In this document: positions 28,581 through 29,093 of the stretch, piece by piece | How the letters are laid out: every line of letters begins with the position of its first letter | Numbering within the stretch: position 1 is the first letter of the stretch | Source of the DNA: a virus | Lineage: Duplodnaviria > Heunggongvirae > Uroviricota > Caudoviricetes | Reading direction: 5' to 3' (one strand) | DNA length: 64,000 nt | Virus record (IMG/VR): IMGVR_UViG_2850808358_000005 | Notes under the pieces: model-generated | Databases searched by the model: none | What the model was told of the DNA's origin: nothing | Seen by the model: only the letters and a program-made list of their open reading frames with translations | Made by a program: the position numbers and the translations under genes

Positions 28581-29093
28581 TTGATGGAGTGGATAAATGC
28601 TTTGATGAACTATTTTGTACTTCATCCATATCGCCTATGGGGGCTTCTTTTTATAATAGCGTTCACAAAATCCACTTTACTCATTTCGGCGATATTGCCA
28701 CCAGCATCAATTATGATGGCCACTGTAATTACAGTCAGCAAGACGACTCTTTCACCATGGGAAGCTGGAATCACGGTCATGAGTGGCGCATGGTGCGGTA
28801 CTATCGTTAATTACCATCTTGGTATAATAATTGGGCATATCCCTCAACTTGCATGTATAATATCGAGCCGTTCCAATACAATAGAACGGGTTCGCCTTCA
28901 GTTGCAAAATAACTCTGTGTCAATACTTTTCACTTCGCGCTTTATCGCCGTGCTGCGTTATATTGCTCCTTTGGTGGCAGGAATGTTGCAACTTCATCCA
29001 GTGAAAGTGTATACAGTGAGTCTGATTTCAGCTGCTAGCTGGTCAGCACTTTATGTTGGTAGTTTTAGCTTCGTGTTGCCTTTTTTTAGCTAA
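28581..29093 (+). CDS. DedA/YqaA-family inner membrane protein (moron at the bor position)
   Basis: 170 aa, multiple TM helices, opposite strand between lysis cassette and terminase. Confidence 0.5.
   Translation: MMEWINALMNYFVLHPYRLWGLLFIIAFTKSTLLISAILPPASIMMATVITVSKTTLSPWEAGITVMSGAWCGTIVNYHLGIIIGHIPQLACIISSRSNTIERVRLQLQNNSVSILFTSRFIAVLRYIAPLVAGMLQLHPVKVYTVSLISAASWSALYVGSFSFVLPFFS

Follow-up and report, generated by a model that had tools for sequence, protein, structure and literature searches.

DedA proteins are now seen as transporters of lipids or undecaprenyl phosphate with ties to polymyxin resistance, capsule and virulence, and we know of no DedA protein with a solved structure. A second described system that bears on the present locus is the bor gene of phage lambda, which is expressed in lysogens and, according to the annotation of the lambda genome, sits on the strand opposite to Rz and 32 bp past it. 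Here, we describe a DedA-type gene (28584–29093 including the stop codon, + strand) carried by a lambdoid prophage in a 64,000-nucleotide stretch of DNA (IMG/VR virus record IMGVR_UViG_2850808358_000005), which we refer to as the window. As an initial annotation made from the letters of the DNA had claimed, the gene sits on the opposite strand between Rz/Rz1 and terminase, i.e. at the lambda bor position. Its behaviour as a moron, also proposed there, was borne out by a foreign base composition, by its absence from a related Klebsiella phage with the same flanks and by the occurrence of the same cassette in another prophage backbone, and we are highly confident that it represents a DedA-superfamily moron in a bor-like slot.

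Among the characterised DedA proteins, the arginine pair of Bacillus subtilis UptA together with E32 contributes to binding of C55-P, a model showing E32 hydrogen-bonded to R118 (PMC11474028), whilst in YqjA residues E39, D51, R130, R136 and S52 are functionally important (bioRxiv 10.64898/2026.09.20.752871; PMC7818093). A topology scheme for DedA proteins with two re-entrant loops has also been published (PMC7818093).

The maximal open reading frame (ORF) of the prophage gene runs from TTG 28581 to 29093 on the + strand, encoding 170 amino acids (aa) from the start chosen by PGAP, in agreement with the initial annotation. An ATG at 28584 directly follows this TTG, has the ribosome-binding sequence AAGGAAAG upstream of it and is the start kept in homologues, in one of which the preceding codon is CTG; the product is therefore probably a DedA-type protein of 169 aa starting at ATG 28584. 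Both the 169-aa and the 170-aa forms are found in public databases, and the RefSeq/PGAP name is already ‘DedA family protein’ (WP_011069285.1), such that the gene is known at the annotation level. The predicted protein is strongly hydrophobic along its whole length, and the ORF, the PF09335 domain, the conserved ATG and ribosome-binding sequence and the dN/dS values all support a coding sequence for a minimal DedA-superfamily inner-membrane protein. We consider 28581–29093 a real gene and no chance ORF because of the VTT domain E-value (9e-14), dN/dS values of 0.15–0.25 against three homologues, and relatives in 73 species-level genomes.

Membership of the DedA superfamily, and with it the multi-pass membrane character that had been proposed, was supported by a profile search in which Pfam PF09335 (VTT_dom) scored 52.4 bits, its gathering threshold being 33.9 (E 9.3e-14; profile positions 3–121 of 123). 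The label ‘DedA/YqaA-family’ used in the initial annotation held only in its first half. When the protein was compared by phmmer with all eight E. coli K-12 DedA paralogues the best score was to YabI (39.9 bits), followed by DedA (32.1) and YqjA (27.7), whilst YqaA scored 6.2 bits and assignment to the YqaA subfamily was rejected. Scores against the NCBIfam equivalogs fell far below the cut-offs, both for E. coli DedA (NF008102; 30.7 vs 236) and for UptA (NF052604 and NF052605; 19.5 vs 250 and 16 vs 300 respectively). BLASTP to K-12 YqjA (E 3e-9) aligned R119/R125 of the prophage protein with R130/R136, and S42 with S52, and in the same alignment YqjA E39 was replaced by K29 and D51 by A41.

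The fold was modelled with AlphaFold2 (AF2) from 54 sequences (pLDDT 78.8, pTM 0.73), an earlier model from 19 sequences having been discarded as too poor (pLDDT 58). Helices were predicted at 2–13, 15–30/32–35, 41–52, 58–84, 87–109, 111–118, 124–134 and 139–168, with breaks before 41–52 and before 124–134, and the resulting helix-break-helix arrangements at 31–41 and 119–123 are as the published scheme would lead one to expect for the two re-entrant loops. On this prediction the protein is essentially a bare DedA/VTT core, comprising two repeats of amphipathic helix, re-entrant loop and transmembrane helix and lacking further helices on either side.

A profile search of 1.84 billion representative proteins returned 4794 DedA relatives, with only 12 clusters at E ≤ 1e-30 and the next scores at about 85 bits, and a word-indexed search found the same gap (149 to 83 bits). 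Members of this clade are 165–180 aa long and come from Enterobacterales only, namely Shigella/E. coli, Citrobacter, Kosakonia, Enterobacter, Lelliottia, Hafnia, Morganella, Proteus and Arsenophonus. In an hmmalign alignment of the 150 best representatives, the signature K-S-T...P-P-A-S was found in every clade member, fragments included, whilst the nearest out-group proteins carry Glu at the K29 column in 125/134 sequences and Gly at the position of the second Pro in 108/134. The arginine pair R119/R125, placed in the second re-entrant loop, is invariant in the 19-sequence clade alignment and is Arg in 127/134 and 123/134 out-group proteins. Also invariant in the clade are K29 and A41, in the columns of YqjA E39 and D51, but the D51 column is already S, A or T in YabI-like proteins, which leaves Glu to Lys, Gly to Pro and a Tyr behind the second Arg as the changes peculiar to the clade. 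The clade alignment contains no invariant acidic residue, and the membrane-embedded acidic pair of the first re-entrant loop of DedA proteins (YqjA E39 and D51), which is not part of the Pfam family definition, is absent from the prophage protein. These comparisons place the prophage protein in a sharply bounded, Enterobacterales-only DedA subfamily which the E. coli/Shigella chromosome does not encode, given that the best K-12 paralogue is YabI at 39.9 bits and that the gene is present in only 6/5426 complete E. coli genomes. Many of the nearest out-group relatives (e.g. P0040, P0043 and P0048) are 630–730 aa long, a DedA domain at the N-terminus being joined to a large C-terminal region.

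The mobile unit is larger than the gene itself, spanning about 595 bp (28509–29103, +) with some 72 bp upstream of the ORF and some 10 bp downstream. These limits derive from blastn alignments, which extended over 28509–29103 against a Citrobacter youngae prophage, 28514–29104 against the C. meridianamericanus chromosome and 28514–29094 against L043. The ORF has a GC content of 42% (0.40–0.44) and a GC3 of 0.39, and the cassette as a whole a GC content of 41–42%, compared with about 51% in the flanks. The cassette is 82.5% identical to the copy in the C. youngae-type lambdoid prophage, where its place is likewise antisense, with the lysis region on one side and the terminase region on the other; the backbone of that prophage differs in having a GpA/Nu1-type terminase, a GH19 endolysin and other holins. 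It is also 77–78% identical to Citrobacter chromosomal islets that adjoin a dinI-like gene. With the Kosakonia copies (72% aa identity), located between an EF-G paralogue and an L,D-transpeptidase, the ORF alone is common. In K. arachidis (L053) a 35-bp direct repeat (5815–5849 and 6522–6556; 86% identical, 707 bp apart) brackets the DedA gene and overlaps hairpin-forming sequence, which suggests insertion with duplication of a terminator-like target.

The variable slot that holds the cassette, equivalent to that of lambda bor, extends from the start of the terminase small subunit gene to the 3' end of Rz (28395–29191), as delimited by homology to the flanks of a Klebsiella phage and by the position of lambda bor. 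In Klebsiella phage ST16-OXA48phi5.2, homology to the window ends at 28394 and resumes at 29192, and only 208 bp with a 45-aa ORF lie between these points. At the Rz side of the slot a small hydrophobic ORF of 35 aa (29090–29197, –) overlaps the Rz stop codon and appears to be a remnant or variant, with a weak match to phrog_11822. Its first ~60 nt (~20 codons) are homologous to a 50-aa hydrophobic ORF after Rz in an O157:H7 prophage and phage Ayreon, E. coli prophages and Ayreon sharing Rz plus the start of the 50-aa ORF; this homology stops near 29138, the 3' part having been replaced at the right junction of the cassette. Since the Klebsiella phage carries a different filler and the homology to the 50-aa ORF breaks at the junction, the slot is interpreted as a recombination-prone variable region of which the DedA cassette is one occupant. 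A bor homologue was found nowhere in the 64-kb window, and a relationship of the DedA-type protein to Bor was rejected, the two having no similarity.

The neighbouring genes are all on the – strand, with the DedA-type gene on the + strand, antisense to the late operon. They comprise a P21-type holin S (30146–30361; PF04971, 121 bits), an endolysin of the phage lysozyme type (29649–30146; PF00959, 155.6 bits), the Rz i-spanin (29182–29664; PF03245, 103 bits) as the last late-lysis gene before the slot and, embedded in it, an Rz1 o-spanin lipoprotein ORF (29226–29432) recognised by an MVVGC lipobox and a proline-rich tail in the translation. Beyond the slot follow the terminase small subunit (27623–28387; phrog_370, 319 bits) as the first packaging gene, the terminase large subunit (26269–27780; PF04466, 131 bits) and the portal gene.

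This proximity to holin, endolysin and spanins raises the question of a role in the lytic cycle, whether in lysis timing, in membrane energetics or in supplying lipid II or undecaprenyl phosphate during phage development. Such a role could also be read from the Citrobacter prophage (L002), where the cassette lies within a rearranged lysis region: a 128-bp fragment (7800–7927) homologous to the endolysin 3' end of the window (29659–29786) borders the cassette on its left, with an Rz-like ORF after it, and is what is left of a second lysis module, of P21 type, next to the GH19-type one. However, the gene is oriented opposite to the late operon and late transcription must therefore cross it in antisense, related phages that share these lysis and terminase genes dispense with it, and it is kept in prophages whose packaging genes are deleted or disrupted by insertion sequence (IS) elements, all of which makes a lytic function highly improbable.

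Upstream of the ORF, a conserved non-coding region (28509–28583, +), the presumed site of the promoter and ribosome-binding sequence, is common to the Citrobacter prophage and the dinI islets and in part to the chromosomal copy of C. amalonaticus, its conserved blocks being GTGTT(T/G)A(A/G)G, (A/G)ATT(A/G)AG and TTAAATAG. A hand-picked candidate promoter, consisting of –35-like TTGA and –10-like TTAAAT blocks, had a spacing of 21–22 bp and no promoter is claimed from it; a dyad seen in the spacer of one Citrobacter copy was likewise set aside as it is not conserved. A comparison with Rfam identified no RNA family within the cassette or near it. A 14-nt inverted repeat (13/14 complementary) has one arm within the ORF (28759–28772) and the other 23 nt past the stop codon (29116–29129), which with roughly 0.05 matches estimated by chance is borderline.

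Nei–Gojobori dN/dS values of 0.25 against the Citrobacter prophage copy, 0.16 against C. meridianamericanus and 0.15 against C. amalonaticus indicate that the gene is under purifying selection. The exact protein is found on at least 1000 contigs, mainly from S. flexneri but also from S. sonnei, S. dysenteriae and E. coli, and the gene is intact in prophage copies in which IS elements have removed or split adjacent phage genes. DedA genes nevertheless appear rare as phage cargo: by megablast the cassette had no match among 50,697 phage records; tblastn against phage records gave only distant DedA genes (24–30%), mostly in records that resemble host fragments or are unannotated; PHROGs offered only a weak match to a family of unknown function; and a library of predicted viral structures yielded no significant match.

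In a census taking one genome per species (73 loci), the clade member was prophage-borne in only three (S. flexneri, E. coli and C. youngae), the other 70 being chromosomal, and it was retained even in Arsenophonus endosymbiont genomes of 0.84–0.93 Mb. This distribution bears on the idea that the protein is an anti-phage factor. Many morons for small inner-membrane proteins act in superinfection exclusion, and a protein of this sort could block injection by altering the inner membrane, or adsorption through a surface that depends on the carrier lipid; an antisense gene in a classic moron slot, in a prophage with other host-modifying cargo including ipaH, would suit such a function. On the other hand, the protein matched no PADLOC defence model, its DedA core residues (the Arg pair and the Ser) are kept as for a transporter, and 70/73 of its species-level relatives are chromosomal, some of them in 0.84-Mb endosymbionts, in which phage defence would hardly account for their retention. 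We regard an exclusion function as quite unlikely.

The same census revealed an association with Mg2+ channels, a Mg2+ channel gene standing next to the clade member in 41/73 species-level loci. The gene mgtE is adjacent in 28 Enterobacter/Lelliottia/Huaxiibacter loci, where the two are divergent, and in five Arsenophonus loci, where they are in tandem, whilst corA, an unrelated Mg2+ channel gene, lies about 10 bp away in 8/8 Morganella loci. In Hafnia, the DedA gene is 23 bp after an MFS transporter gene and mgtE is 2.6 kb away. M-box riboswitches precede the mgtE genes of Enterobacter, Lelliottia, Huaxiibacter, Arsenophonus and Hafnia (example loci: L025 4610–6504, L010 8001–10050, L045 1365–5522 and L044 5001–6470; census L048–L120). 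In addition, Mg2+/Ca2+ rescues phenotypes of Klebsiella pneumoniae yqjA/yghB mutants, and in Xanthomonas a DedA protein has been linked to Mg2+ uptake (PMC10846249). Taken together, the synteny, the riboswitches and the published cation effects would fit a factor for homeostasis of Mg2+ or other divalent cations, with an ancestral job of assisting, regulating or compensating MgtE/CorA, or of adjusting the membrane at low Mg2+, and with the prophage copy helping the lysogen in low-Mg2+ niches. Against this, the association, though suggestive, is inherited within genera and so amounts to only about three or four independent events; no Mg2+ channel gene adjoins the copies in the prophage, in Kosakonia, in C. 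amalonaticus and in the Arsenophonus strains with reduced genomes; and the cation effects in the literature may arise indirectly, by way of the membrane potential (PMC10846249). We consider a primary role in Mg2+ homeostasis, in place of carrier-lipid flipping, unlikely.

The reading that we favour is one of lysogenic conversion, not of virion production. A cassette of about 0.6 kb was imported from a Citrobacter-like source into the slot of a lambdoid Shigella/E. coli prophage, and the gene would be transcribed in the lysogen from its own upstream block, independent of and opposite to late transcription, as is lambda bor. The protein would insert into the inner membrane as a bare DedA core, where the pair R119/R125 would bind an anionic lipid head group, most plausibly of undecaprenyl phosphate or a phospholipid, and the bound lipid would be moved across the membrane. 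The lysogen would in this way gain a ninth, non-native DedA activity for envelope homeostasis, with recycling of the carrier lipid and tolerance of cation or alkaline stress and of antimicrobial peptides as possible benefits. The position of YqjA E39 is taken by an invariant Lys and the clade has no invariant acidic residue, which argues for a different energisation; transport is probably not proton-coupled in the way proposed for YqjA.

The reality of the gene, its moron anatomy, the family, the subfamily signature, the selection and the transfer between chromosomes and two prophage backbones are borne out, whilst the chance that this account as a whole, with weight given to its mechanistic part, is the best explanation appears evenly balanced. 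For the specific lipid-handling mechanism and its benefit to the lysogen, taken by themselves, we lean slightly towards doubt. Several points weigh against them. Neither sigma-70 consensus sites (≥ 9/12) in 28509–28583 or around the ORF nor an intrinsic terminator around the ORF was found, so both the promoter function of the upstream block and expression in the lysogen are no more than inferred. Because the equivalog cut-offs are missed, no substrate can be transferred by orthology; the Glu required in YqjA is a Lys here, such that activity may differ from that of the characterised DedA proteins; and our searches by sequence and by fold found no comparable solved structure to anchor the model. 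The Shigella/E. coli copies are 99–100% identical and thus carry no signal on selection within Shigella. Finally, a literature search found no paper on the prophage DedA gene or its accession; what matches there were for a prophage or moron DedA proved to be false positives (the place name ‘Dedacun’ and the author ‘Morona’).

Some of these points, namely the want of a recognisable promoter or terminator and the near-identity of the Shigella/E. coli copies, would equally be expected of a neutral passenger of a successful Shigella prophage, not expressed or not useful in this host, as would its rarity in complete E. coli genomes. A mere passenger does not sit well with an ORF that has stayed intact on so many contigs despite IS activity and prophage decay nearby, with purifying selection between the Shigella and Citrobacter prophage copies, or with conservation of the upstream 70 bp together with the ORF, and we judge this explanation very unlikely. 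A bolder version of lysogenic conversion draws on the Mg2+ channel synteny as well. Under it, the KST/PPAS clade would be a functionally distinct DedA subfamily in which the canonical, proton-titratable Glu is charge-reversed to Lys (leaving three basic and no conserved acidic residues in the core of the re-entrant loops) and whose native role may be coupled to Mg2+ channels. Its capture by temperate Citrobacter and Shigella phages would then serve to remodel how lipids of the inner membrane, or the carrier lipid, are handled in an invasive lysogen that meets low Mg2+ and abundant antimicrobial peptides. To this reading we give little credence at present.

Elsewhere in the window there are two copies of a gene for a 571-aa IpaH-type type III effector (1400–3115 and 49379–51094, both +) with an NEL E3-ligase domain (258 bits) and an LRR_TTSS domain, the one located past the tail-fibre end of the prophage and the other past its lambda-type integrase gene (47564–48640). 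This pair gives the window a Shigella-like character and shows the prophage to carry virulence cargo. IS3-family transposase ORFs occur in and around the prophage (4193–5011, 9008–9826, 45063–46220, 51941–52759 and 54157–54975), and copies of this prophage in other genomes carry IS2 within the gene for the large terminase subunit, as well as an IS1 close to the tRNA cluster. That cluster consists of four phage-borne tRNA genes (31040–31350, –), for Gly-tcc, Thr-tgt, Arg-tct and a tRNA with a CAT anticodon (called Met by ARAGORN and Ile by RefSeq), sited between the holin gene and that for a Q-like antiterminator/DUF1133 protein (31540–32214). The early/late regulatory region also contains a gene for the epoxyqueuosine reductase QueH (33814–34500, –; PF02677, 220 bits), another metabolic moron.

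Were a phenotype to exist, for instance in tolerance of antimicrobial peptides, bile, EDTA or low Mg2+, or in O-antigen supply, this would add a new trait of lysogenic conversion in a pathogen, given the very many Shigella carriers; if there is no phenotype, the gene is one more moron of a known family, already annotated. The swap of Glu to Lys at a residue required in YqjA, combined with the Mg2+ channel synteny, amounts to a natural experiment on how DedA proteins are energised, and these are the parts that could repay experiments. Should the reading as a distinct subfamily be true, the gene would offer both a new lysogenic-conversion function and a natural mutant informing the mechanism of DedA transport.

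Compared with YabI, DedA and YqjA/YghB, the prophage protein has in common the VTT domain, the RFxxxxR motif with both Arg residues, the equivalent of YqjA S52, the Gly/Pro framework and two predicted re-entrant loops. It differs from them in sharing only 20–25% identity, in being prophage-borne where theirs are core chromosomal genes, and in its length of 169 aa with no extra C-terminal helices, the E. coli paralogues having 219–254 aa; a Lys at the position of YqjA E39, PPAS in place of PGDS and the clade-specific Tyr after the second Arg further set it apart from these paralogues. UptA and the PA4029-type flippases belong to the same superfamily and their Arg pair (UptA R112/R118) is kept, but the prophage protein scores far below the UptA equivalog cut-offs and its transport activity is putative. 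The chromosomal members of its own clade are closer, sharing its length, the KST...PPAS...RFIAVLRY signature and 36–78% identity, although most of them lie beside corA or an mgtE with an M-box whilst the prophage copy is phage cargo with no such neighbour. In its product the gene is unlike lambda bor, Bor being a 97-aa outer-membrane lipoprotein and the DedA-type protein a polytopic protein of the inner membrane, whereas in its situation it is like bor, each lying right after Rz/Rz1, antisense to the late operon and ahead of the packaging genes.

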